The notes: generated by a model not told the origin, from the sequence alone. 64,000 nt of DNA from Bryobacterales bacterium (GCA_965226215.1 CBDDCH010000002.1:1495180-1559179), one strand, 5' to 3'. Positions 4,929-17,049 are shown, numbered from the stretch's first letter. Translations and numbers: made by a program.

Positions 4929-6995
4929 ATGAGCGACCAACCTGTTCGCGTCCTTCTGATCGAGGATAGCTCTACGTTCCGGGCAGCCATCCGAGGATTC
5001 CTAGCCGGCACCTTCCTGGGTGCGGTCGAGACGACCTCCGCCGACTGCCTGGCCAAAGGGATCGAGCTTCTGCGCGAACCGCAACTCGTCGATGTGATTC
5101 TGCTCGATCTGATGCTGCCGGACTCCGAGGGACTTGAGACCTTCCACAGTGTGCACACCGCTGCCGGGGACTTGCCCATCGTGCTGTTAACCGGGGTCGA
5201 CGACGACGAGATGGGCTTTAGGCTGGTTCAAGAGGGCGCGCAGGACTACCTGGTCAAAAAGCAGGTGAACAGGGATTCGCTCGCCCGCTCCTTGCGCTAC
5301 GCGATCGAGCGGGCCAAAACCGAGCGCGAGTTGGCGAAAGCGCGGGACGCCGGGCTAGAGTCGGCCCGTCTCAAGAGCCAATTCTTGGCGACCATGAGTC
5401 ACGAAATCCGAACGCCGATGAACGGCCTCATCGGCATGTCGAACCTCTTGCTGGAGACTGATCTCGACGCGGAGCAGCAGGAGTACGCCCGCACCGTGAG
5501 CCTCTGCGCTGAATCCCTGCTGGCTTTACTCAACGACATCCTCGACTTCTCCAAGATTGAAGCAGGCAAGTTGACATTCGAGTCGGTGGAATATGAGCTC
5601 CACCAAGTGGCTGGGCAAGCCGTCGAGCTCCTTGCCTGGCGAGCCCAAGCAAAGGGCGTCGAGATCGTCATCCTGATTGAAGAAAGCGTGCCCCGCTGGG
5701 CCCAGGGAGACCCCGGCCGGCTGCGGCAAGTGCTGGTCAATCTGATCGGAAACGCGGTCAAGTTCACCGACAATGGCTCGGTTGTCGTGCGGGTCGAGTG
5801 CAAAACCCAACCTGGCGAGGATGCCGTGGTGAAGTTCAGTGTTCGAGACACTGGCGTCGGCATCGCTCCCGAGGCCCAAAAAGTTCTTTTCCGACCGTTC
5901 ATCCAGGCCGATAGCACCACCACTCGCCAGTACGGCGGAACGGGTCTGGGTCTGGCCATTTCGAAGCAACTTGTCGAAGAAATGGGAGGGCAGATCGGCG
6001 TCGAGAGTTCGCTGGGAAGCGGCTCCACTTTTTGGTTCACGATCGAGCTTGGAGAAGCCCAAGACTCAGCGCAGGTCCGCCAACCGCCGCCGGAACTCGC
6101 CGACCGGCGGGTGCTCGTTGTCGATCGTCACCCGGCCAACTCCGAAGTCATGCAGTACTACCTGAAAAGCTGGAAATTACGGCCCACGCTGGCGACGAGC
6201 GGAAACAGCGGGCTCGCTCTGCTTTATAAGAAGGCGGAAAACGGTGTCCCTTATGACTTGGCCATCATTGATGATGAGCTGCCGGATGTCAAAGGCCTCG
6301 AACTGGCTCGAACGATGCACGCCGACCAAACCCTGGGCCGTACGCCTGTGGTATTGCTATGCCCTTTCAGCAACCGGCTGGATCCGTCGGTGGCCCGCCT
6401 GGCCGGGATCACCTCGGTGCTGTCGAAACCTTTCCTTCGCAACCGTCTTTTGGGGATGCTAACCAGCCTCTTCGCTCCCGCCGGCGCAGCCGAGGGATCC
6501 GACCCGCAACAAGCGATGAAAAGGGTCTCCCCCGCCGACTCTTCGGCCGACGAGATGAATATTCTCCTGGCCGAGGATAACGCCGTCAACCAGATGCTCG
6601 CCGTACGTCTGCTCGAAAAGATCGGCTACCGGGTCGATGTGGTCGAAAATGGACTGGATGCGGTCGACAGGGTCCGAAGAGGGCGATACGATCTTGTCCT
6701 GATGGATTGTCAGATGCCCGAAATGGATGGCTATCAGGCGACGGCGGAAATCCGGCGCCTGGAAGCCGGCCAGCGTCACACGAACATTGTCGCCGTGACC
6801 GCCAACGCCATGCTGGGCGACCGCGAGAAATGCCTCAAGGCGGGCATGGACGACTACCTATCAAAGCCCATTCAACTGGCGCAGCTCAAGAATGTTTTGG
6901 AGCGTTGGTCGCAAGTAGCTTCCGGGAAACAAGATGAGTTATTCCCCGCTTCGACCGCCCGACCGGGCGACGGCGGGGGTCGCCAAAAGCCTTAA
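4929..6995 (+). CDS. Cytoplasmic hybrid histidine kinase (REC-HisKA-HATPase-REC-REC)
   Basis: H-box [16 protein letters not shown]-box [16 protein letters not shown] and [10 protein letters not shown]. Three receiver domains ([13 protein letters not shown]; IIDDELPD; [17 protein letters not shown]). Confidence 0.95.
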
Positions 6996-6996
6996 C

Positions 6997-7137
6997 GCAT
7001 CATTTCGTAAATACGGTTACGAAAGGTGGCCGGGCGCAATGAATTGCGCCCGGAGGCGCGACAAATCGCTGCCCTACGGATGGGCTTGAGCATCTCGCGT
7101 TTAAGCGTAGGGGCACAATTCATTGCGTCCGAGCTGA
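6997..7137 (+). repeat. Repeat family B (MITE-like), left part; contains palindrome GGGCGCAATGAATTGCGCCC and a GTAGGGGC REP
   Basis: GCATCATTTCGTAAATACGGTTACGAAAGGTGGCCG is nearly identical to the start of the element at 38622, and the internal blocks also align. Confidence 0.8.
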
Positions 7138-7143
7138 ACAAAT

Positions 7144-7390
7144 GGGGACTGTCAACGATTTTCGCTTCCGCCAGCGCCTTGTTTCCAGTATGAGCTAGCT
7201 ACTTTCCGGCGCAAAATACGAGTACCGCTCGGGGCGGGGACTGTCACCAATTTCGCGCCTTCAAAGAATCAACAACTTGCGGGCGCATCCGGACGCGAAA
7301 TTGGCTGACTGTACCCAGCCGCCACGCAGTTTCTCCTTTTTGCGCCGAAAAGTAGCTAGATGACGAAAATCGGTGACTGTACCCATTTGT
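7144..7390. repeat. Nested imperfect palindrome, family E (REPIN/BIME-like)
   Basis: GGGGACTGTCA(A/C)C..TTTCGC at 7144 and 7236 faces (G)CGAAA..GG.TGACTGTACCC at 7295 and 7364. CTAGCTACTTTCCGGCGCAAAA pairs with TTTTGCGCCGAAAAGTAGCTAG. Confidence 0.75.
7267..7279 (+). promoter_or_regulatory. IHF consensus site
   Basis: AATCAACAACTTG matches WATCAANNNNTTR and lies in the centre of the palindromic element. Confidence 0.5.
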
Positions 7391-7469
7391 CGCCCTGCGG
7401 ATCCTATCCTTGTGAGTGGATTCGGACGAATCCTGCCTCCAAACAGCACTTAATTTCCGGAAAAACCGT

Positions 7470-7488
7470 GGTCCGTTTCCGAGCGTTT
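7470..7488 (+). promoter_or_regulatory. Partial copy of the putative ECF promoter motif upstream of the ECF sigma gene
   Basis: GGTCCGTTTCCGAGCGTTT matches the 12282/13382 motif at 16 of 19 positions; the -10 part has diverged. Confidence 0.4.
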
Positions 7489-7510
7489 CTTGATATGGTA
7501 GAGGCGCACG

Positions 7511-8074
7511 ATGACGGGTGAAATGACGGACCGGCTCCTGCCGGAGCGGTATCGCAGTTTTCTGATCATGTTGGCTCGGGTAAGCCTTCGAGATTTGGGG
7601 CCGATGGCGCGCAAAGTCGATGCCTCGGACGTCGTGCAAGAGGCCTTGTTGCAGGCGCACGTGGCGCTGCCCAAGTTTCGTGGGACCACCAGCGTCGAGT
7701 TAAGAGCATGGTTGCGGACGATTCTGGCGAATAAACTTACCGACGCTGTTCGTTATTGGCTTCGCGGCAAGCGCGATGTCGGGTTGGAGCAGACGATCCG
7801 CGAGTCGCTGAGCAAATCTGATGGCAGGGTCGCGGTACTCATTCACAAGACCGACCCGGGCCAACGCATTTTGATAGACGAAAAGCTGATCCGTCTGGCC
7901 GAGACGTTGGAAACTCTTCCTGAAGACCAATGCGCGGCCGTCGAACTGCGTCACTTGTACGGTTATTCCGTATCCGAAATCGCCTCACAAATGCGCCGCA
8001 CCAAACCAAGCGTGGCCGGTCTGCTGCGGCGTGGGCTCAGCGGGCTGCGCGAACAGCTGGAAGACTTGGCGTGA
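7511..8074 (+). CDS. ECF sigma-70 factor, Planctomycete-type (STK-associated) subfamily
   Basis: Region 2 DASDVVQEALL..FRGTTSVELRAWLRTILANKLTD..KRD and region 4 LPEDQCAAVELRHLYGYSVSEIA..VAGLLRRGL. Confidence 0.9.
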   Translation: MTGEMTDRLLPERYRSFLIMLARVSLRDLGPMARKVDASDVVQEALLQAHVALPKFRGTTSVELRAWLRTILANKLTDAVRYWLRGKRDVGLEQTIRESLSKSDGRVAVLIHKTDPGQRILIDEKLIRLAETLETLPEDQCAAVELRHLYGYSVSEIASQMRRTKPSVAGLLRRGLSGLREQLEDLA

Positions 8075-8121
8075 GTCCGGCATTGTCAGCGTAGACTCCT
8101 GCATGTCGTCAGGCGCTGACT

Positions 8122-8150
8122 CGCATTTTTCACGAGCTGACGGTCGAAGC
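8122..8150 (+). mobile_element. Left-end fragment of MITE family C
   Basis: CGCATTTTTCACGAGCTGACGGTCGAAGC matches the left ends at 52755 and 59726. Confidence 0.6.
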
Positions 8151-8184
8151 GCGCGCGAGGCCTGCCCCGGCTCTCCCAGCAGCT

Positions 8185-10311
8185 TCATCGTGCGCGGTGC
8201 TTGACCCGCGGCAGGACGTACCTGACGACTCCCGCCGAGAGGAGGGCCACCAGGCAAAACCCGACCACGACCCACAGCTCCGTCGGGATAACTTGGCTGT
8301 ATCGCCGCTGCACGACAACAATGAACTCAGAGTCTTCCACCGGAGCGAAGCCGGCAATCCAGCGGCCGGTGTACTGCTCGTTCAACGGCGCAACAGGATC
8401 ATAGTAGTCGTCGGCGATACTCTTCCGAATCGTTTCTAGCTGCCCCCTTGGAACCCAGACGGGCGGTGTTCGACGCTCGTAGGCCGGATGAAGCAGGACC
8501 AGGTATTCCGACGCGTCGGCGGGGGCAGCGGGTTCTCCCGGCGCGAAAAACGGGTCTTTTCGGGCCACAAGAGCGGTTGTGAACTCGTCGCTCTCCGTCT
8601 CGGGCAGACCCATCTGCCGACTGGTGGTGACTGATGCCGTCAGAACGCCGACGATCTTTTCGCCGTCTCGCACCGCGGCGGCGATCCCAAATTTGTACAG
8701 GTCATCCGAGAAGGCCTTATACACCCGCGAGATGTAAACGGGTGCTCCGCCTTCCGTTTTCGCCAAACCGAGCGCACCCTGATAGTAGTCTCGGCGCCTC
8801 AGGTCTTTTCCTTCCGTCTCCGGCGACGGCGCCGGCCAGCGCGCCACGATTTCGCCGTCGAGGTTATTGCCAATGAACCAACTCTCAAAAGGGGATTCGC
8901 CGTTCAGATCGACACGGCTGTTCCCTGTTTCCTCGATGAACGTTTGCAAGCCCGTGAGGTCTCGTTGCGTCAGAAGTTCGCCGACCTTTGGGTCCCGAGC
9001 CGCGGCACCGACCGCCCGGCTCAATTGTGTCAATCGAAGGTGCATAGTCTTCGCTCGCTGTTGAGCAAGAGCTATTTGGGCGCGGTAGGGTCTCTCTATG
9101 AGGTCGGCGATCAATAGACCGACCAATGCCAGACTGGCCAAGACCATGACGGCAAGACCCGCTCCGAGCGGGGTGCGCCGGCCCCAGAGCCACGAGCGCT
9201 CCCAGAACCACAGCGGCCTTGCTTCGGTGGGCCGGTAGGTCAACCATCGCTCGAGGTCCTTGGCGAGACCCTCGGCCGAACGGTAACGCTCTTGGGGATC
9301 CTTCCGCAGACACCTGAGCGAGATCGCTTCCAGCGTGCGGTCAACGTGCGGGTTAATCTCGCGTGGCGGCTTCGGTTTCTCCTTCGGATTCTTGACGCGC
9401 TTAAGCGTCGCTTCGACTGTGGGGCCTCGAAACGGAGGTTCGCCCGTCTGCAGCGTATACAAAATCGCTCCGACCCCGTACACGTCGCTCAACGTCGTTA
9501 CATCTTTTCCTTCGGCCTGTTCAGGCGACATGTAGCTGGCTGTGCCGGCGATAGTCCGGTACACCTGGCTCGTTGCGCTAACTGTCGCGCCTACTTCCGC
9601 CGGCAATCCGTCCGCGCCGATCGTCTTGGCCAGACAAAAATCGGTTACATAGGGCCTGTCCTGTTCGCTTTCGTCTTTGTCCAACAGGATGTTGGCCGGT
9701 TTCAAGTCGCGGTGCAGAATGCGGCGCTGGTGCGCGTGATGCACGGCGCGAGCCACGTTCACCATAAGCTTGGCGGCGGATCTCTGATCATGGATAAAGC
9801 GATCCCGATGCTCGTCCAGGCTACGGGCCTCGACCAATTCCATGCTCAAGAAGGGACGGCCTTCGTGCTCCCCCACGTCGTGAACTCGGACGATATTGGG
9901 ATGTTTCAACTTTGCCATGCTTTGCGCTTCGAGGCTGAAACGCCTCATCTCCTCAGCCGTAATCAGATTGCCGGGCAGGCTCATCTTTAGGGCTAGCGAA
10001 ATATCTAGCTCCTGATCGAAGGCCTTGTAGACGACACCCATCCCCCCGTGGCCAAGGTATTTGATATCCGTATACCGGCCGAAGTCGGGCAGACGACAAG
10101 GGATGCTCCCGAGATCGGATAAGACAATGCTTTCGTTCTCGAAGTGACTGAGGAGCTGCTGTGCGAGGTCGGGATGATCCTCAACGTACTTCTCCTGAAG
10201 AGCGCACAACTCGGAGAGATTGTCTTTGAAGGCCTCGGCCTCCTCGTAGTATTTGGCGAGGATGTGGTCCAGCGGCTCTGCGTCAGGCTCGGAGTCTTGG
10301 CGCTTGTTCAT
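8185..10311 (-). CDS. Hanks-type Ser/Thr protein kinase with TM, extracytoplasmic Cache-like domain and C-terminal TM
   Basis: Motifs LGHGGMGVVYKA, ALK, HRDLKPANILL, DFC (DFG variant), GTASYMSPEQ, SDVYGVG and PPF. The sensor region has RDYYQGAL..VYISRVY..IAAAVRDGEKIVGVL (Cache-like). The N-terminal extension LDHILAKY..HPDLAQQL is typical of ECF-linked kinases. Confidence 0.92.
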   Translation of the reverse strand: MNKRQDSEPDAEPLDHILAKYYEEAEAFKDNLSELCALQEKYVEDHPDLAQQLLSHFENESIVLSDLGSIPCRLPDFGRYTDIKYLGHGGMGVVYKAFDQELDISLALKMSLPGNLITAEEMRRFSLEAQSMAKLKHPNIVRVHDVGEHEGRPFLSMELVEARSLDEHRDRFIHDQRSAAKLMVNVARAVHHAHQRRILHRDLKPANILLDKDESEQDRPYVTDFCLAKTIGADGLPAEVGATVSATSQVYRTIAGTASYMSPEQAEGKDVTTLSDVYGVGAILYTLQTGEPPFRGPTVEATLKRVKNPKEKPKPPREINPHVDRTLEAISLRCLRKDPQERYRSAEGLAKDLERWLTYRPTEARPLWFWERSWLWGRRTPLGAGLAVMVLASLALVGLLIADLIERPYRAQIALAQQRAKTMHLRLTQLSRAVGAAARDPKVGELLTQRDLTGLQTFIEETGNSRVDLNGESPFESWFIGNNLDGEIVARWPAPSPETEGKDLRRRDYYQGALGLAKTEGGAPVYISRVYKAFSDDLYKFGIAAAVRDGEKIVGVLTASVTTSRQMGLPETESDEFTTALVARKDPFFAPGEPAAPADASEYLVLLHPAYERRTPPVWVPRGQLETIRKSIADDYYDPVAPLNEQYTGRWIAGFAPVEDSEFIVVVQRRYSQVIPTELWVVVGFCLVALLSAGVVRYVLPRVKHRAR

Positions 10312-10340
10312 CGCTTAGGCCCGCGGTAGAAGTGAAAGTC

Positions 10341-10438
10341 GCGAAAATCGGGTACAGCCAGCCAATTCGCTTCAGGCTACGTACTCTTTTTCTAGGGCCA
10401 TGGCGGGGGGCGAATTGGTGGCAGTCCCCATTTTTCGC
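10341..10438. repeat. Family E palindromic element in reverse orientation
   Basis: GGGTACAGCCAGCCAATTCGC (10350) and GCGAATTGGTGGCAGTCCCCA (10410) are reverse complements of the 7295 and 7236 units. Confidence 0.7.
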
Positions 10439-10632
10439 TCCCGAACGACTTTTGCCACGGGCTGTTAGGCCTTTCGGCCTGCTTTCGGCACTGTGGGAGT
10501 TCAACACGCGGTAGCGCGCCCGCAGCGCCCGCCAATTCATCTTGGCGCGCCCATATCCTCGACGCAGGCCGAGGACAGTATGCCCCGGAGCGGCCAGGAC
10601 CGATCGGGAGAAAGAGCAGGCCTTTGCAGGAG

Positions 10633-10661
10633 AAGACGACAACCGGGCCGAAGACGGACCG
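10633..10661 (-). promoter_or_regulatory. Putative ECF-dependent promoter facing the kinase gene
   Basis: The minus strand reads CGGTCCGT-cttcggcccgg-TTGTCGTCTT, the same two blocks as at 12281 and 13381 with a one-base longer spacer. Confidence 0.55.
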
Positions 10662-10837
10662 CAGTATTGACGATTTCTCGCTGTTGGTCCGGACCCGGGT
10701 GGCCGGGTTCTTTGGAGGCGGCCAGGCGCAAGGGTACCTAGTCCGCCCCAATCTGTTTCCCCTTTTCCCGTTTCCTTCCATTTCGCGCGGTCTGTTGTTC
10801 GCAGGGTGGCGTCCTGGTTAGTAGAGGACATTAACCG

Positions 10838-12268
10838 ATGAATTGGCTAACGGAACACTGGCTGCAGCTACTCTTCTTGGTCGGCTACTTAGGCATGCTG
10901 GCTCACCATTGCCGGGCAGGAAAGAAAAGCACTCACAACTTAGGAGACTATCTGATCGCCGGACGCGGCTTGGGCGGTTGGGTCATCGCCCTGTCGTTCT
11001 ACGCGACGTTTGTCAGCACGAATAGCTTCGTGGGGCACGCCGGCAAAAGCTGGGATGTGGGGTTGATCTGGTACATCAAGGGGGCGGTCATTGTCGCCTC
11101 GTGCTACTTGGCCTGGTATTTGGTTGCGCCGCGGTTTTTCACCAAAGCCCGCGAGTACAACTCATTGACCTTGGCTGATTTTCTGGGGCACCGGTATGAG
11201 TCTCCGGCGCTGCGCCGGGTTTCGGCGCTAGTGATCTTCGTAGCGGCGGGGCTTTACATGGTCGCCGTTTACAAGGGATCCGCGCTCGCCTTGCAGCAGT
11301 TTCTCGGGCTCGAGTACCACCTGGCGGCAGCCGCGGTGTTCGTGGTGGTCACCGCCTATACCCTGGCCGGCGGCTTCCGTTCCGTGGTGCTCACCGATGC
11401 CGTGCAAGGGCTGCTGATGGCTTTCGGCAGCGTCGTATTGTTCGTCGCTGTAATCATCAAGGGCGGTGGGCTGACGGCAATCGTGGACACTGTCCGCAAC
11501 CAAGATCCCAACCTAGTCTCGTGGGAAGGGAACATGCCCCTAGCCGCCATTCTCGGCCTATCGATCGCGGGCGGGATGAAGATGCTGGTCGATCCGAGGC
11601 AACTTTCACGGATTTATGGCCTCAAGGACGAAGGCGCCCTGCGGACGGCGCGGATCGTGTCGCCGTTACTCATACTGATTACGTACGTGTGTCTGTTACC
11701 TATCGGGACCTTTGCGCATGCTCTGATTCCCGCCAGTTCTATACCCGATTCCGATCACGTGATGCCCTACCTGTTGGGCACAGCCGAAGTGCTTGGCCCC
11801 GTACTCAGCTCCTTCTTCCTGTTGGTCTTGTTGTCAGCCGCGATGTCATCGCTGGACTCGATTCTGCTGGTGGCGGCGTCTTCGGTGAGTCGCGACGTGG
11901 TGATTACTGACGACCAGGATCAAAATGCAATCCGCCGGACCCGGCTGTGGGTCGTTGTGCTGTCGCTGGCAAGTATGCTGGTGGCGCTGAACCCGTTCGC
12001 TGATATTGTCCAGATCACGGCGTTTTCGGGGTCCCTCTACGCGGCCTGCTTCCTGCCGACGCTCGTGATGGGGCTTTACTGGAAGCGCGGCACGCGGGCC
12101 GGCGCTCTGGCCTGCGTCGTGGTTGGCTCTATCACCGTGATTGCTTGGTACCTCGCCAGATATGCCGGCTGGACAGGTTGGCATGAAGTATACGTGGGAA
12201 CTTTGGTGGCATTCGTGGTGTACGTTGGGGTGTCGCTGCTGACGTCGAACCGTACTTCTCGAAAATGA
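10838..12268 (+). CDS. Sodium:solute symporter (SSS/PutP-PanF family)
   Basis: YLIAGRGLG, ALSFYATFVSTNSFVGHAG, TLADFLGHRY, YTLAGGFRSVVLTDAVQG and SAAMSSLDS; about 13 TM segments. Confidence 0.92.
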   Translation: MNWLTEHWLQLLFLVGYLGMLAHHCRAGKKSTHNLGDYLIAGRGLGGWVIALSFYATFVSTNSFVGHAGKSWDVGLIWYIKGAVIVASCYLAWYLVAPRFFTKAREYNSLTLADFLGHRYESPALRRVSALVIFVAAGLYMVAVYKGSALALQQFLGLEYHLAAAAVFVVVTAYTLAGGFRSVVLTDAVQGLLMAFGSVVLFVAVIIKGGGLTAIVDTVRNQDPNLVSWEGNMPLAAILGLSIAGGMKMLVDPRQLSRIYGLKDEGALRTARIVSPLLILITYVCLLPIGTFAHALIPASSIPDSDHVMPYLLGTAEVLGPVLSSFFLLVLLSAAMSSLDSILLVAASSVSRDVVITDDQDQNAIRRTRLWVVVLSLASMLVALNPFADIVQITAFSGSLYAACFLPTLVMGLYWKRGTRAGALACVVVGSITVIAWYLARYAGWTGWHEVYVGTLVAFVVYVGVSLLTSNRTSRK

Positions 12269-12280
12269 GTGCCGGACCAC

Positions 12281-12319
12281 CGGTCCGTTTCTCCGCGTTT
12301 GTCGTCTTTGTCCATAGAG
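12281..12319 (+). promoter_or_regulatory. Direct repeat copy 1, putative ECF promoter upstream of the GIDE-like gene
   Basis: CGGTCCGTTTCTCCGCGTTTGTCGTCTTTGTCC (33 bp) is identical at 13381 and is followed by (A/T)TAGAG. Confidence 0.65.
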
Positions 12320-12398
12320 CAACAATGAGGTAAGACGCGTGAGGAGGTTGGAAAATGATTAGTCCAAATTGTAAATTGCTCAGAATAGGAGGAGGCAC

Positions 12399-13205
12399 AT
12401 GGGATTGGTCGGGATAGGTGCTGTTCTCGCGCTGCTACTGGCATTCCTTATGCTTCTGGCAAAGGCCCGACACGACAGGGTCGTCCGCCTGATTCATCAA
12501 ACCCCTGTTACTCCCATCGCCGACCTGGTCCGGTCCTTCATAGCCCACGCTGACTCTGCGAGCCCAACCCATGCCGCGGTGCAGGGGCGCGTCGTGGCAA
12601 GGGAGACGACACGTTTGACGGCTCCGATCACGGGTAGCTCCTGCGTTGCCTATAAGGTCAGCGTACTTTACCCGGGTGATGGCGACGAAATCTGCGACGA
12701 GAATTACATCGAGGACTCCAAGTGGGTGCCGTGGGCGGTCGACGATGGTACAGGGCTCGCCCTGGCCCCCTTCAATCCATTGGAACCGCCCCAAGAATGG
12801 TGGGATCGGTATCTGTTATCTTGGCCAGGAATAGAATCCTCCAGGGACACTTTCAAAAACACCCCGCGACAACTCGAGCGTGTAATCTCGCACTATGGTC
12901 GTTGGCGCTTGCCGTCACCAGAAGGATTGATGCCCGCGTCGTATCGTAGAGATGACTACAAGGACCTCTCGTGGAAGGCGAGCATTCTCAAGGAGTTCGG
13001 GAATGAGGTCTTCCTCCTGGGCCCGTGCACGGTCCAAGAAGGCCGTGCTCACTTCCAGCTCGGTTCAGACTCGATCCTCTGGTTTGGCAGCAGAGCGGAT
13101 GCTCTCTCGCATGTGCAACTGTCCGCGAAACGCAGCGCGCGCTGGGCCAAGATCTCGTTTACCGTATTTGTCACTCTCGCTCTCGTGTATCTCCAGTTCG
13201 GTTGA
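12399..13205 (+). CDS. Two-TM membrane protein with a GIDE-like (MUL1/SP1 luminal-type) domain
   Basis: N-terminal TM, then TPIADL..VQGRVV..LTAPITGSSCVAYKV..W.VDDGTG, then a C-terminal TM. Strong AGGAGGAGG RBS. The family call comes from motif memory. Confidence 0.6.
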   Translation: MGLVGIGAVLALLLAFLMLLAKARHDRVVRLIHQTPVTPIADLVRSFIAHADSASPTHAAVQGRVVARETTRLTAPITGSSCVAYKVSVLYPGDGDEICDENYIEDSKWVPWAVDDGTGLALAPFNPLEPPQEWWDRYLLSWPGIESSRDTFKNTPRQLERVISHYGRWRLPSPEGLMPASYRRDDYKDLSWKASILKEFGNEVFLLGPCTVQEGRAHFQLGSDSILWFGSRADALSHVQLSAKRSARWAKISFTVFVTLALVYLQFG

Positions 13206-13380
13206 ACCTTAAGGGTTACAGGCTGACCAACCGGGCAAACGCTTTCCCCGTTCAACGCCCATCGGCAGCTTTCGGGTCTCGGATACCAAGTATCTGCCGC
13301 CAATTGGGTGGCAGCGGGTGTTCCGAGGCGGTGTCTGGAGCCGGGAACTTCCAGCAGACGGCGAAAAGCCCCTCCCCGCG

Positions 13381-13419
13381 CGGTCCGTTTCTCCGCGTTT
13401 GTCGTCTTTGTCCTTAGAG
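13381..13419 (+). promoter_or_regulatory. Direct repeat copy 2, putative ECF promoter upstream of the SPFH gene
   Basis: Identical to 12281-12313; lies 33 bp before the ATG, with an AAGGAG RBS in between. Confidence 0.65.
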
Positions 13420-13451
13420 GCGGAAATTTCAAGTGAAAGGAGAAAATCATC

Positions 13452-14783
13452 ATGGGTATGTTTGACGAACCGGAAGCGAGAGGACCAGGTGGACTCGACC
13501 CCCAAAAGGCCGGCAAAGTCGGCTCGGAGGCAATCAAGCAGGTGGGTGTAGGGGCAAGAGCGCTTTTCAGTGCGCTTCCCCTCATACGAATAGTGTCCCT
13601 CGGGGCCATCCTAGTGGTGGCGGTGGTGCTTGGCAAAGGGCTCGTTGAGACCGTGGCCAACGGCACCTACCAAATAAGACAGATGGTGATTACGGGTACG
13701 ATGAAGGCCAAGATAGAGCCGGGCATGTGGCTGCGGCTGTTCAGCGACATCAAAACCTGGCCCAAAGCACAAACCTTTTTCTTCACCAAAGATAAAGAAG
13801 GAGGAGAGAGCGCCGACAACAGCATCGAGGTTCGCTTTAACGACGGTTCTTTGTGCGACGTGTCGGGAACCATGCGTATTATTCTGCCCAGCTCCGAACC
13901 CCAAGCGATTGAGTTGATCAGCAAGTACGGCTACATGGACTACAAGGATCTGGAACAGAAGCTCGTTCTCCCGGTCGTGCGTAATGCATTGCGTCTGACC
14001 TCCAATCTTATGTCGGCTCGAGAGTCCTATTCCGAGCAGCGCGCGGACTTCGTTTTCTGGACCTGGGATCAGGTCCAGAACGGGCTCTACGAAACGACGG
14101 AGGAAACCCGCAAGGTAGTTGATCCCGTTTCGGGGCAGGAGGTAACCAAGACCTTCAAGATCATCAGAAAGGACGATGGGGGCAACCCCGTCTATCAGCG
14201 CAATCCGCTAAAGGGCTTGGGTATCACTTTGGCGAACTTCGAGGTCAAGCTGTTCGATTACACCGATAAGGTGCGGGCTCAGATCAGCACCCAACAAACC
14301 GCCCTGATGGCGGTGGCCACGGCCAAAGCCAAGGCCCAACAGGCTGAACAAGAGGCCCTGATGGCCGAGGCCGAAGGCAAGGCGAACGTGGCGCGGGCCA
14401 AGTACGAAGAAGAGGAGAAAAAAATCAGAGCCGTCGTCGGCGCGCGGCAGCGCCTGGAAGTCGCCGATCTCGATCGCCAAGCGGCCGGCGAGAAGAAGCA
14501 AGAGCAAATTCTGCTGGGGCAAGGAGAAGCCGAGCGAAAGCGATTGGTCCTGAAGGCCGACGGAGCGTTGAAGCAAAAGTTAGAGGCGTACGTACAGGCT
14601 CAGCAGCTATGGGCGAATGCATTTGCTCAACGGCAAGTGCCCAGTTTGGTCATGGGAGGCGGCGGCGCCGGTGACACGGACAAGTCGACCACGAATTTCG
14701 CCCAGATGATGCAGCTCCTTGTCGCCAACCAAATGGGGCTGGACCTTTCAATGCCCAAGGGCGCGACAAGTAGGCAACGGTAA
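13452..14783 (+). CDS. SPFH/band-7 family membrane protein with a long coiled coil
   Basis: One N-terminal TM, an SPFH-like core (IEVRFNDGS..SGTMRIILP..VVRNAL..MSARESYSEQR) and an Ala/Glu-rich coiled coil (AKAKAQQAEQEALMAEAEGKA). Confidence 0.75.
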   Translation: MGMFDEPEARGPGGLDPQKAGKVGSEAIKQVGVGARALFSALPLIRIVSLGAILVVAVVLGKGLVETVANGTYQIRQMVITGTMKAKIEPGMWLRLFSDIKTWPKAQTFFFTKDKEGGESADNSIEVRFNDGSLCDVSGTMRIILPSSEPQAIELISKYGYMDYKDLEQKLVLPVVRNALRLTSNLMSARESYSEQRADFVFWTWDQVQNGLYETTEETRKVVDPVSGQEVTKTFKIIRKDDGGNPVYQRNPLKGLGITLANFEVKLFDYTDKVRAQISTQQTALMAVATAKAKAQQAEQEALMAEAEGKANVARAKYEEEEKKIRAVVGARQRLEVADLDRQAAGEKKQEQILLGQGEAERKRLVLKADGALKQKLEAYVQAQQLWANAFAQRQVPSLVMGGGGAGDTDKSTTNFAQMMQLLVANQMGLDLSMPKGATSRQR

Positions 14784-14912
14784 CGGCCCAGCGCGAGGGC
14801 GAGCTGCGGTGGTGGATGTGGAGGCCGGCCCGGAAGTCGGCCTCTTACGGCTCGCCAATCAACAGATAGGTGATTTCAAAAGAAGTGTCAGCGGATAACG
14901 AGAGCCGAGTGA

Positions 14913-15959
14913 TCACTGATCGGGGTGAATGGTAAACACCGGTCCCATGTCAAAGCGAGGCGGCTTGCGTTGTCGGAGGAGTTCGGTCTGTTCGGAAAGG
15001 GCGGTGACGAGCAGCGGCATGGCGATCGTGGAGTCGCAATGGCAGTTGACCATCTCGGCCCCTTTTGCGAGCTTTCCCCAGCTTTGCGATTCCTCGAACG
15101 TGCAACCGGAAAGTCCGCCCCAGTGGGGAGCGTCGGTGACCACCTGGACGCCGTAGCGATGGCCGGTCTTATCCTTGTTCATGAGGATGGCGATCACTTC
15201 GGTCTGCTGGACGTAGTTCTTGGGAGTGCCGCCGCCGAAGTAGATCACGCCGGTGGCGCGTGAGTCGGCCACGACGTTGGTGATTTCGAGAACGTCCCCC
15301 ATTATGTCGAACATGAGGCGGTTTTCTCCCCGATGCCGGCTCTCGGCGACACCAATGCCGATCGAGCTATCGCCGATCGCAGGACAAAACAGGGGAACCT
15401 TGGCCTTCGCCGCCGTAGCTACGATGCCCGGTTCCTTCGAATCCTTGAGAATTTCTTTCCCCAGCAGGTACAGAAACTCGCGTGTCGTGTAAGGGCGGGA
15501 TTGGTCGAGCCGCGAGGCGAAGCTGCCGATCCACAGATCGTGCTCGCGAAATCGAACTTCGTCCGCCAGCACGTCGTACATACGGTCCACCATGTGATCA
15601 CCCAGCTCTTCGTCATCCATATCCGCCGAGCCCTGGTAGTGGTAGAACCCCTTGGTTTCGTGGATGTCGTGAAAGAAGTTGGCTCCCGTCGAAGCCAGCA
15701 CGTCGATCAGCCGGTTCTCGATCATGTAGACCACCAAACGTCGCATGCCGGCCGGGACCATAGCCCCGGAGAGGCCCATCAAGATCGTACATTCGGGATC
15801 GGCCAACATCTGCTTCCAAACCTGGAATGCGCGGCCTAACTCTCGCCCTTGGAAGGCGGTGCCCGCCATTTTTTCGAGAATCACGGAAGCACTTTTTTGT
15901 TCATCTATAGGGAAAGGCAGAGTGGGGTGAGACAGGATCTCCTCTTTGGAACGCTTCAT
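14913..15959 (-). CDS. Deoxyhypusine synthase-like protein
   Basis: Motifs GLSGAMVPAG, STGAN..HD, DSSIG, GGGTPKN, TD.PHWGGLSG and ESQSWGK (catalytic Lys retained). Confidence 0.92.
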   Translation of the reverse strand: MKRSKEEILSHPTLPFPIDEQKSASVILEKMAGTAFQGRELGRAFQVWKQMLADPECTILMGLSGAMVPAGMRRLVVYMIENRLIDVLASTGANFFHDIHETKGFYHYQGSADMDDEELGDHMVDRMYDVLADEVRFREHDLWIGSFASRLDQSRPYTTREFLYLLGKEILKDSKEPGIVATAAKAKVPLFCPAIGDSSIGIGVAESRHRGENRLMFDIMGDVLEITNVVADSRATGVIYFGGGTPKNYVQQTEVIAILMNKDKTGHRYGVQVVTDAPHWGGLSGCTFEESQSWGKLAKGAEMVNCHCDSTIAMPLLVTALSEQTELLRQRKPPRFDMGPVFTIHPDQ

Positions 15960-16425: not shown

Positions 16426-17049
16426 ATGGGACAGCCCAGCCAATCGGTGGACCTTAATGAGTCTGAACTGGTGGGCCAGTCCAGGAATGTGGACCGTGCG
16501 GCCTTCACGGAGCTGGTCAACCGCTATGCCGCCAAGATCTTCCGCTTGGCGCGGCATATCACCAAGAACGATCACGACGCCGAAGACGTTCTTCAGGAGG
16601 CTTTCCTCAAGGCCTACTCCCGGCTGGATCAATTTCAGGGAAACTCGAGATTCTACACCTGGCTAGTGCGCATCGCGGTCAACGAGGCCTTGATGAAGCT
16701 GAGGCGGGCGAAGACGCGAAAGACCGTCTCTCTCGATCAGGAGCTGGAGTCCGAGGACGGCTCGCTTCCGCGGGAGACAGCCTCCGAGGAGGAGAGTCCC
16801 GAAGAACGCTACGGCCGTCTCGAGACCCGCGAATACCTGACCCAAGCGATCGATAGCCTGTCCGAAGCTTACCGCTCGGTCTTGGTGCTGCGCGACATCG
16901 AGGGCCTTTCGACGGAGGAAACCGCCGAGATGCTGGACCTTTCCGCTTCAGCGGTGAAGTCGCGGCTCCTCAGGGCGCGTTTGCAGTTGCGGGAAAAACT
17001 GAAGCGACACCTAGGTCGAAATGGGAGACAAACACAAAATCAACTGTAA
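16426..17049 (+). CDS. ECF sigma-70 factor (RpoE/SigW-like)
   Basis: AAFTELVNRY..DAEDVLQEAFLKAY..FQGNSRFYTWLVRIAVN and YRSVLVLRDIEGLSTEETA..AVKSRLLRAR. Confidence 0.95.
   Translation: MGQPSQSVDLNESELVGQSRNVDRAAFTELVNRYAAKIFRLARHITKNDHDAEDVLQEAFLKAYSRLDQFQGNSRFYTWLVRIAVNEALMKLRRAKTRKTVSLDQELESEDGSLPRETASEEESPEERYGRLETREYLTQAIDSLSEAYRSVLVLRDIEGLSTEETAEMLDLSASAVKSRLLRARLQLREKLKRHLGRNGRQTQNQL

Follow-up and report, generated by a model that had tools for sequence, protein, structure and literature searches.

Which factor reads a rare bipartite element that recurs upstream of the genes around an extracytoplasmic function (ECF) sigma factor and a Hanks-type Ser/Thr kinase, and does that kinase control the sigma factor? 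The question is raised by a locus in a 64,000-nucleotide window (C2:1495180-1559179; unprefixed positions are counted from its first nucleotide) of the genome of an uncultured soil acidobacterium of the Bryobacterales (phylum Acidobacteriota), the 5.6 Mb assembly of which consists of two contigs, C1 and C2. We consider it probable that the locus encodes a module in which an ECF sigma factor under the control of a Hanks kinase reads the GGTCC-N16(17)-CGTC promoters of a small regulon. The genomes compared directly display the motif, its rarity, its position before genes, its conservation and its co-occurrence with the sigma factor and the kinase. A sequence-only reading of the window had already proposed a kinase-linked ECF sigma factor with a local regulon marked by a bipartite promoter; comparative genomics bears out this outline, whereas its “GIDE-like” label for one gene product, its choice of phosphosite (FRGTTS) and autoregulation of the sigma gene in this genome are unsupported or need correction.

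In the mechanism that we propose, the membrane-bound Ser/Thr kinase would detect an extracytoplasmic signal, probably through a dCache-type periplasmic sensor, and would activate the ECF sigma factor encoded beside it. The most likely phosphorylation target is Ser39, a residue that stands at the place of the Glu in the canonical DAED patch contacting the beta' subunit. Judging from comparative genomics, the activated sigma factor would then take RNA polymerase to the GGTCC-N16(17)-CGTC promoters, and the motif at the kinase gene would provide positive feedback.

A rare and conserved promoter-like element

A search of the window with the pattern CGGTCCGT-N{9,12}-TTGTCGTCTT returned exactly three matches, at 12281-12308(+), 13381-13408(+) and 10661-10633(-), against an expectation of 0 from 100 dinucleotide-preserving shuffles of the window. 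The search thereby confirmed the three occurrences reported in the sequence-only reading, and its impression that the full motif lies nowhere else in the window. The two plus-strand copies share 33 identical bp (12281-12313 = 13381-13413), followed by a one-base difference and a common TAGAG (97% identity over 39 bp). Elsewhere in the genome we found one further copy only, at C1:697212(+), and each of the four full copies precedes a gene and is oriented with it; over all copies, the distance to the start codon is 24-323 nt. The features of the locus are as follows (scores in bits for predicted promoters refer to the weight matrix described below):

7470..7494, plus strand: relic of the sigma-gene promoter, with the -35 half (GGTCCGTTTC..GCGTTT) kept and the -10 CGTC deleted
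7511..8074, plus strand: ECF sigma factor, 187 aa (Pfam Sigma70_r2, Sigma70_r4_2, Sigma70_ECF)
8185..10311, minus strand: Hanks-type Ser/Thr kinase, 708 aa (Pfam Pkinase, E=2.4e-44)
10319..10471, no strand assigned: dispersed-repeat copy of ~150 bp in the kinase 5' leader (>100 genomic copies, 77-95% identity)
10635..10660, minus strand: predicted kinase promoter GGTCCGTCTTCGGCCCGGTTGTCGTC, spacer longer by 1 nt (27.8 bits)
10789..10813, plus strand: predicted promoter of the symporter gene, variant GGTCTGTTGTTCGCAGGGTGGCGTC, ending 24 nt before the ATG
10838..12268, plus strand: sodium:solute symporter (SSS), 476 aa (Pfam SSF, E=1.2e-61)
12282..12306, plus strand: predicted promoter of the 268-aa protein gene, GGTCCGTTTCTCCGCGTTTGTCGTC (38.1 bits)
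12356..12418, plus strand: 20-codon leader open reading frame (ORF; MISPNCKLL...), MISPNCKLLRIGGGTWDWSG, with homology to the beginning of the Zn-ribbon/DUF3592 gene
12399..13205, plus strand: 268-aa protein with terminal transmembrane (TM) helices, without a Pfam or NCBIfam match
13382..13406, plus strand: predicted SPFH promoter GGTCCGTTTCTCCGCGTTTGTCGTC (38.1 bits), ending 45 nt before the ATG
13452..14783, plus strand: SPFH/Band 7 membrane protein, 443 aa (Pfam Band_7, 26.5 bits)
16426: second ECF sigma factor gene, 1.6 kb downstream of the SPFH gene

The sites at 12282 and 13382 have the geometry GGTCC-N16-CGTC, and in the kinase promoters the spacer is N17. The element is thus bipartite, with the 16-17-nt spacer and CGTC -10 element of ECF-type promoters, and its -35 core has TCC in place of the usual AAC. 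We took orthologous loci from relatives with the sigma gene (hereafter G000 denotes the present genome, other G numbers related genomes and L numbers fetched loci). The 25-nt consensus cgcGGTCCGTTTCnnnGCGTTTGTCGTCTT is kept across Bryobacterales genera, and 37 non-redundant sites from relatives yield the consensus cgcGGTCCGTTTCnnnGCGTTTGTCGTCTTnnTccTTAGAG; their alignment shares the 25-nt core and diverges in the flanks, with low information content in the upstream flank. The nominal spacer is unusually conserved and holds a CGTTTC/CGTTTG direct repeat with its halves 10 nt apart. Past the CGTC, a T at +2 and at +5 is nearly invariant, and ~10 nt further on comes TAGAG(G), close to where transcription would be expected to begin.

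To score sites we built a 25-nt weight matrix from 20 sites in relatives. In a scan of the genome it gave 39.3 bits at C1:697213, 38.1 bits at each of 12282 and 13382, and 27.8 bits at the kinase site, scores that are partly circular (see below); the next-best score after these four, 20.0 bits, belongs to an unrelated 8-copy repeat. A relaxed pattern, GGTYYRT-N12,13-KBCGTC, has 27 matches where ~20 are expected and does not discriminate by itself, and four of its matches are clustered within 2.8 kb.

Could the 33-39-bp repeats simply be the outcome of a recent local duplication or gene conversion, with no regulatory role? The near-identity of the two plus-strand copies would fit such an origin, as would the C1 copy, which lies inside a 313-bp segmental duplicate beside an IS1595-like transposase. 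Yet the core is kept across genera before non-homologous genes while the flanks diverge, the copies always point towards a start codon, motif counts follow the presence of the sigma factor (see below), and the true dispersed repeats of this genome do not carry the motif, so that we find this explanation hardly credible. The motif lies outside the dispersed repeats at 7000-7360, 8110-8166 and 10319-10471, each of which has dozens of genomic copies. The 25-nt element is, on its sequence, a conserved promoter-like element rather than a dispersed repeat; the scan of the genome and of orthologous loci, by finding it rare (four full copies) and conserved upstream of genes, settles a concern that had been raised with the sequence-only reading.

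The dispersed repeats themselves make up at least four families of short elements (~50-170 bp), resembling repetitive extragenic palindromes (REP) or miniature inverted-repeat transposable elements (MITE), at 7000-7140, 7192-7360, 8110-8166 and 10319-10471. Each family has tens to >100 genomic copies at 75-97% identity.

The motif tracks the kinase-linked sigma factor

For phyletic tests we used 41 genomes, of which 11 are sigma-positive (10 with an intact gene, and G008 with a frameshifted one) and 30 sigma-negative. The pattern GGTYYRYTYN8TTGNCGTC has 41 matches in the 11 sigma-positive genomes (3.7 each) and 8 in the 30 sigma-negative genomes (0.27 each); the latter is background, with a reversed-pattern control giving 12 matches over all 41 genomes (0.29 each). 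An orthologue of the kinase sensor domain is present in 10/10 genomes with an intact sigma gene and in 0/30 without the gene, and G008 has none.

An alternative that we regard as quite improbable is that another factor reads the motif, be it the second ECF at 16426, some other ECF or a DNA-binding regulator, the link to the kinase-linked sigma factor being positional only. In its favour, all 25 nt are conserved, the nominal spacer included, the -35 element lacks the usual AAC, and the second ECF gene not only lies close to the SPFH gene here but remains near in G002, G003 and G004. However, the second ECF, which had been named as a rival reader in the sequence-only reading, is near-universal (36/41 genomes) and does not track the motif: it occurs in 25 of the 30 genomes that lack the kinase-linked sigma factor and have background motif counts, and it is missing from G015, which nonetheless has 8 motifs. 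Moreover, in at least seven lineages the motif stands in promoter position directly before the kinase-linked sigma gene itself, and besides the targets only the sigma factor and the kinase co-vary with it, the second ECF being the sole other regulator profiled.

Two genomes separate the parts of the system. The sigma gene and the cluster of the kinase, SSS and 268-aa genes are ~485 kb apart in G005 and on different contigs in G006, and both genomes retain the sigma factor, the kinase and strong motifs (34-37 bits), as expected of a factor acting in trans. In G005, a 443-aa DDE transposase (L105:10770-12101) lies beside the kinase gene, where other genomes have the sigma gene; insertion of this transposase may explain the unlinking in G005 and G006. 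Given the phyletic tests and the position of the motif before the sigma gene in other lineages, the kinase-linked sigma factor is by far the best candidate reader of the motif, on evidence that is correlative.

The kinase and a candidate phosphosite in the sigma factor

The sigma factor comprises sigma2 and sigma4 domains only, within ~190 aa, exceeds the cut-offs of its three Pfam models and matches TIGR02937 at 70 bits (cut-off 42.9), which places it in the ECF (group IV) class. Its nearest homologues outside Bryobacterales are planctomycetal ECFs of 30-49% identity, every one with an adjacent Ser/Thr kinase. The sigma and kinase genes of the present locus are convergent and 110 bp apart; no ORF lies between them, and there is therefore no anti-sigma candidate there. 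The sigma factor thus combines a conserved association with a Hanks kinase with the lack of a co-encoded anti-sigma factor, as in the kinase-regulated class of ECFs.

In the kinase, an 80-aa N-terminal extension leads into the kinase domain (residues 80-349); beyond this come a TM helix, a ~280-aa periplasmic domain and, at the C-terminus, another TM helix. A Cache sensor had been suggested from the sequence. In this protein the sensor domain matches dCache_1 (PF02743) weakly and below threshold (24.2 bits, E=2.9e-5, cut-off 45), but all 6 of 6 kinase orthologues match the same model, with a best E-value of 1e-9, and a sensor of the dCache type is plausible. A profile search for relatives of the domain in the PDB gave nothing below E=0.5, and its AlphaFold2 model, built on a 6-sequence alignment, is unusable (predicted local distance difference test score, pLDDT, 38). 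The N-terminal extension (residues 1-79) is shared by the orthologues and by some of the planctomycetal ECF-linked kinases (L029, L034, L042). None of the genome's 12 other kinases has this extension, which might serve for docking of the sigma factor. A reading of the locus as a defence system was dropped, since PADLOC gave only generic kinase-domain matches (PD-T4-6, mad6) and these to the kinase only.

The DAED patch of sigma region 2.2 contacts the beta' subunit of RNA polymerase. In the present sigma factor region 2.2 reads D37-A-S39-D40-V-V-Q-E, aligned by HMMER to DVPDVVQE of E. coli sigmaE. All orthologues, in which D37 varies (G, S, E), keep Ser39, and the planctomycetal kinase-linked homologues have it too. 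We compared this position in 73 homologue loci: a Ser at the third position of D-x-S-D-V-V-Q-E occurs in 14/20 loci with a kinase within 4 kb versus 4/53 without one, counts that are phylogenetically non-independent. Three of the four Ser loci without a nearby kinase belong to the family of the present sigma factor, with the kinase unlinked or lost, and loci without a nearby kinase mostly have Glu at this position (DAED or DGED). The sequence-only reading had placed the phosphosite in FRGTTS of region 2.2, the threonines of which are conserved only within Bryobacterales, the wider kinase-linked clade having D, Q, R or E there. Ser39 is conserved in that clade and FRGTTS is not, which makes Ser39 the better candidate on present alignments. 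In ECF43 sigma factors the DAED/DxxD patch of region 2.2 is uncharged and the phosphorylated Thr is its third residue (EcfP STTA; EcfK QATE, T51) (PMC8999054, PMC13147305), and for ECF59 and ECF60 a Ser phosphosite at the DAED motif has been predicted (PMC8103513).

Several points weigh against the kinase-controlled module. The proposed phosphorylation of the sigma factor is deduced from synteny plus one conserved residue. The sigma factor keeps both Asp residues of DxxDxxQE, unlike ECF43, and the logic of a missing negative charge is therefore weaker here, such that the mechanism may differ in degree. The position of Ser39 is not universally acidic either, as E. coli sigmaE has a Pro there (DVPD). 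On the side of the promoter, the -35 core is TCC where ECF promoters typically have AAC, the training sites of the weight matrix were picked by eye within the same family, so that their scores are circular and the informative part is the gap that separates them from the next-best score, and the CGTTTC/CGTTTG repeat in the spacer could be a site for a DNA-binding regulator. To these we add the state of the sigma gene's own promoter and the divergence of the sigma factor, which are taken up in the next section.

Some of the same facts agree with a different arrangement, in which the motif is read by this sigma factor and the kinase is a mere member of the regulon, phosphorylating for instance SPFH or other membrane proteins, while sigma activity is set by transcription, proteolysis or an unlinked anti-sigma factor. 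The acidic DxxDxxQE patch, missing in ECF43 and retained here, speaks for this arrangement, the kinase gene itself bears the motif, sigma factor and kinase are unlinked in G005 and G006, and reviews point to a possibly different mode of action in kinase-linked groups outside ECF43 (PMC8999054). We nevertheless judge it unlikely: the intact sigma factor and the kinase sensor domain co-occur perfectly over the 41 genomes, sigma-kinase adjacency reaches as far as Planctomycetota, the replacement of the canonical Glu by Ser is found specifically in kinase-linked homologues, and the sigma gene has no anti-sigma candidate beside it.

The promoter of the sigma gene is a relic in this clade

The sequence-only reading had noted GGTCCGTTTC-N3-GCGTTT, starting at 7470, 41 bp before the sigma ATG (7511). 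The sequence is indeed present, but as a relic without a -10 element rather than as a working copy. In relatives, the motif lies 21-25 nt before the sigma start in G002, G003, G008, G010 (two copies), G015, G024 and L030. An alignment of the regions upstream of the sigma gene reads GCGTTTG(C/T)CGTCTTGATAT in G024, G010, G002, G003 and L030 versus GCGTT-----TCTTGATAT in G000, G001, G004, G005 and G006, so that the CGTC is missing from the latter five genomes because of a 5-nt deletion. The relic scores 18.0 bits versus 29-39 bits for its counterparts in relatives. In G005 and G006 the -35 half is decayed as well. The sigma promoter is intact in G003, G010, G015, G024 and L030, slightly altered in G008 (GGCGTC as the -10) and affected by a 2-nt deletion in the -35 element in G002.

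By its sequence, then, the sigma gene's own promoter is defective in the present genome, and autoregulation, which the sequence-only reading had named as frequent among ECF genes, was lost with the -10 element. No alternative promoter was found by a sigma-70 scan, which used an E. coli consensus and says little for Acidobacteriota. With the -10 lost, the sigma factor is presumably made from another promoter and controlled only post-translationally in this clade. The gene is not decaying but under purifying selection: its ratio of nonsynonymous to synonymous substitutions (dN/dS) within the clade is 0.15-0.31, a range shared by lineages that have kept the promoter.

The divergence of the gene is high between close relatives. 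Between G000 and G002 the sigma gene has a dS of 0.58 and a dN of 0.30, where dS is 0.21 for the kinase, 0.24 for SPFH and 0.19 for the second ECF; at the protein level it is 62% identical to its counterparts in L020/L021 (G002/G003, of the same genus), whose kinase, SPFH protein and second ECF are 90-97% identical. These values suggest either an older allele acquired by recombination (allele replacement) or a fast-evolving gene, and by the same token the specificity of the sigma factor could have drifted from that in G002 and G003.

Other copies of the sigma gene and of its promoter were seen in relatives. In G010 the sigma gene is present as two divergent copies that stand back to back, with a separate motif for each. 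At L109:4330 (G003) and L110:3979 (G002), orphan promoters of the sigma type with their leader (..GCCGTCttgatagggtagaggcgcaa..) stand before DUF3857-like genes. They are not followed by a sigma gene and probably survive from a second sigma copy that has been lost.

A small predicted regulon of membrane proteins

Counting the relic and the SSS variant, we infer that the motif precedes exactly six transcription units in the present genome. Five are local, namely the kinase, the SSS transporter (with a variant -10), the 268-aa protein, the SPFH protein and the relic before the sigma gene; the sixth, a Zn-ribbon/DUF3592 membrane-protein gene, is remote, on contig C1. In relatives the motif likewise precedes the SPFH, 268-aa, kinase and Zn-ribbon/DUF3592 genes, and in addition an isocitrate/isopropylmalate-dehydrogenase-like (IsoDH-like) gene, a DUF3857/transglutaminase gene and a conserved gene whose product reads FPFAARLARD.... 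The SPFH gene is the most widely conserved target, with upstream sites in G001, G003, G004, G005, G008, G010, G015b and L030 and a diverged form in L029. Orthologous sites lie upstream of the 268-aa gene in G001, G005, G006, G010 and L030, and the site upstream of the kinase is conserved in G001, G005, G006, G015 and L030. In the distant acidobacterial contig L029, with identities of 54% for the sigma factor, 37% for SPFH and 35% for the kinase, GGTTTGTT...TCGTC precedes both the SPFH operon and a gene that diverges from the kinase.

The suggestion that the SSS transporter might be part of the module is strengthened by its conserved variant site 24 nt before its start. The variant, cgcGGTCCGTyATTCkCAGGGTGrCGTC, is kept upstream of the transporter gene in 7 further loci (6 genomes), and in G024 the site has the canonical form (28.9 bits); the transporter therefore belongs to the regulon. 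At the kinase, the distance from promoter to ATG is 323-331 nt in G000 and G001 versus ~180 nt in relatives, owing to the insertion of the 10319-10471 repeat, which is absent in the relatives. The leaders have no Rfam match at E<=0.1 (searched over 6900-15000).

The SPFH protein matches Band 7 (PF01145) over residues 96-302 (26.5 bits, cut-off 23.6) and ends in a C-terminal coiled coil, and the symporter is closest to the PanF and PutP models, below their cut-offs. The 268-aa protein belongs to a small, lineage-restricted family (39 close homologues); in its AlphaFold2 model (pLDDT 66.8) a beta-rich middle region is flanked by a TM helix at either end, and Foldseek gave no PDB match to the model at E<=0.001. 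The “GIDE-like” label given to it earlier lacks support, since 18 members of the family gave no consistent Pfam match, and none to GIDE (PF12483), at E<=10. Since the local targets in the present genome are membrane proteins without exception, it is reasonable to suppose that the output of the regulon is an adaptation of the membrane or envelope.

Promoter units and possible turnover of the regulon

The promoter of the 268-aa gene is linked by sequence to that of the remote unit: window positions 12281-12382 match C1:697212-697312 at 85%, and in several genera 9 codons from the beginning of the Zn-ribbon gene are found within the leader of the 268-aa gene. The leader ORF at 12356-12418 overlaps the main ATG out of frame, and the same remnant also lies upstream of the orthologues in G001, G005, G010 and L030; it may be left over from a promoter capture or may function as an upstream ORF. 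In G001 the Zn-ribbon/DUF3592 gene lies between the 268-aa and SPFH genes, and in the present genome the unit appears, from its surroundings, to have been translocated to C1. The segmental duplicate there (C1:696849-698799) comprises the last 83 codons of the 268-aa gene, intergenic DNA, the promoter and the Zn-ribbon/DUF3592 gene, and is abutted by the ORF of the IS1595-like transposase, which takes the place of the ~8 terminal codons of the Zn-ribbon gene.

In relatives, one and the same promoter plus leader of ~85 nt with a hairpin precedes an IsoDH-like gene in G015 and G024, SPFH in G010 and a 144-aa ORF in G005. These arrangements suggest the hypothesis that the regulon gains and loses genes through recombination at promoter units. 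G015 furthermore has a block of sigma, IsoDH-like, kinase and SSS genes twice (L022, L023; contig 15, ~2.66 Mb and 5.09 Mb), with identical promoters, different downstream cargo and one kinase copy apparently frameshifted. A broader scenario, which we put forward tentatively and hold to be rather doubtful, is that the circuit was rewired in this clade, with autoregulation lost, the kinase promoter left as the sole feedback and promoter-leader repeats swapping the genes of the regulon. If true, it would offer a case from nature in which the promoters themselves drive the turnover of a regulon.

Relation to known systems and significance

By analogy, the system resembles the kinase-activated ECFs, namely ECF43, which is experimentally proven, and ECF59-62 and ECF217, which are predicted. 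With the ECF43 pairs EcfP-PknT of Vibrio parahaemolyticus and EcfK-PknS of Xanthomonas citri it shares the absence of an anti-sigma factor, an adjacent TM Hanks kinase, a hydroxyl residue at the third DAED position (PMC8999054, PMC13147305) and a small dedicated regulon. Unlike ECF43, the present sigma factor keeps both Asp residues (DASDVVQE) and has Ser rather than the conserved Thr (QTTA/STTA), which sets it outside that group. Further differences are the acidobacterial host, the dCache-like sensor of the kinase and the predicted targets, which are SPFH and small membrane proteins rather than polymyxin-resistance or type VI secretion system genes. The closest outside relatives are planctomycetal ECFs with an adjacent Ser/Thr kinase, comparable to the planctomycetal kinase-linked groups (ECF59, ECF61, ECF62, ECF217; original ECF60), and the Ser phosphosite predicted for ECF59 and ECF60 matches the D-x-S-D found here (PMC8103513). 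The best NCBIfam model for the sigma factor is accordingly planctomycetal, TIGR02984 (Sig-70_plancto1; 149 bits, E=1.1e-43), but the score is below the cut-off of 183.75 and the host is an acidobacterium. In the accessible literature we found no description of a promoter or regulon for these planctomycetal groups. Classical ECFs (sigmaE/RpoE, SigW) have the same sigma2 plus sigma4 layout and bipartite promoters in which 16-17 nt separate the -35 from a CGTC -10, and where they are autoregulated the same promoter stands before the sigma gene, a trait shared here only by the relatives. The present system differs from them in having no anti-sigma factor, in a -35 core of GGTCC rather than GGAAC and in an autoregulatory promoter that has lost its -10 in this genome.

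To our knowledge, control of a sigma factor by a kinase has been shown experimentally in only two systems, both proteobacterial and of ECF43, the planctomycetal groups being pure predictions. Acidobacteria are a dominant and poorly studied soil phylum, and we found no description of a kinase-ECF system of this sort in them in the searchable literature. The locus offers a compact, testable model of a kinase-linked ECF group in Acidobacteria with an unusually well-defined predicted regulon. Its assets as a model are a promoter consensus from 37 sites, a predicted regulon of six units and a single strong candidate phosphosite, Ser39. Nature has also supplied variants, in the form of lineages with and without autoregulation and with the sigma gene linked to or unlinked from that of the kinase. 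The sensor kinase, sigma factor and promoter could, moreover, be rebuilt as an orthogonal switch in a laboratory host.

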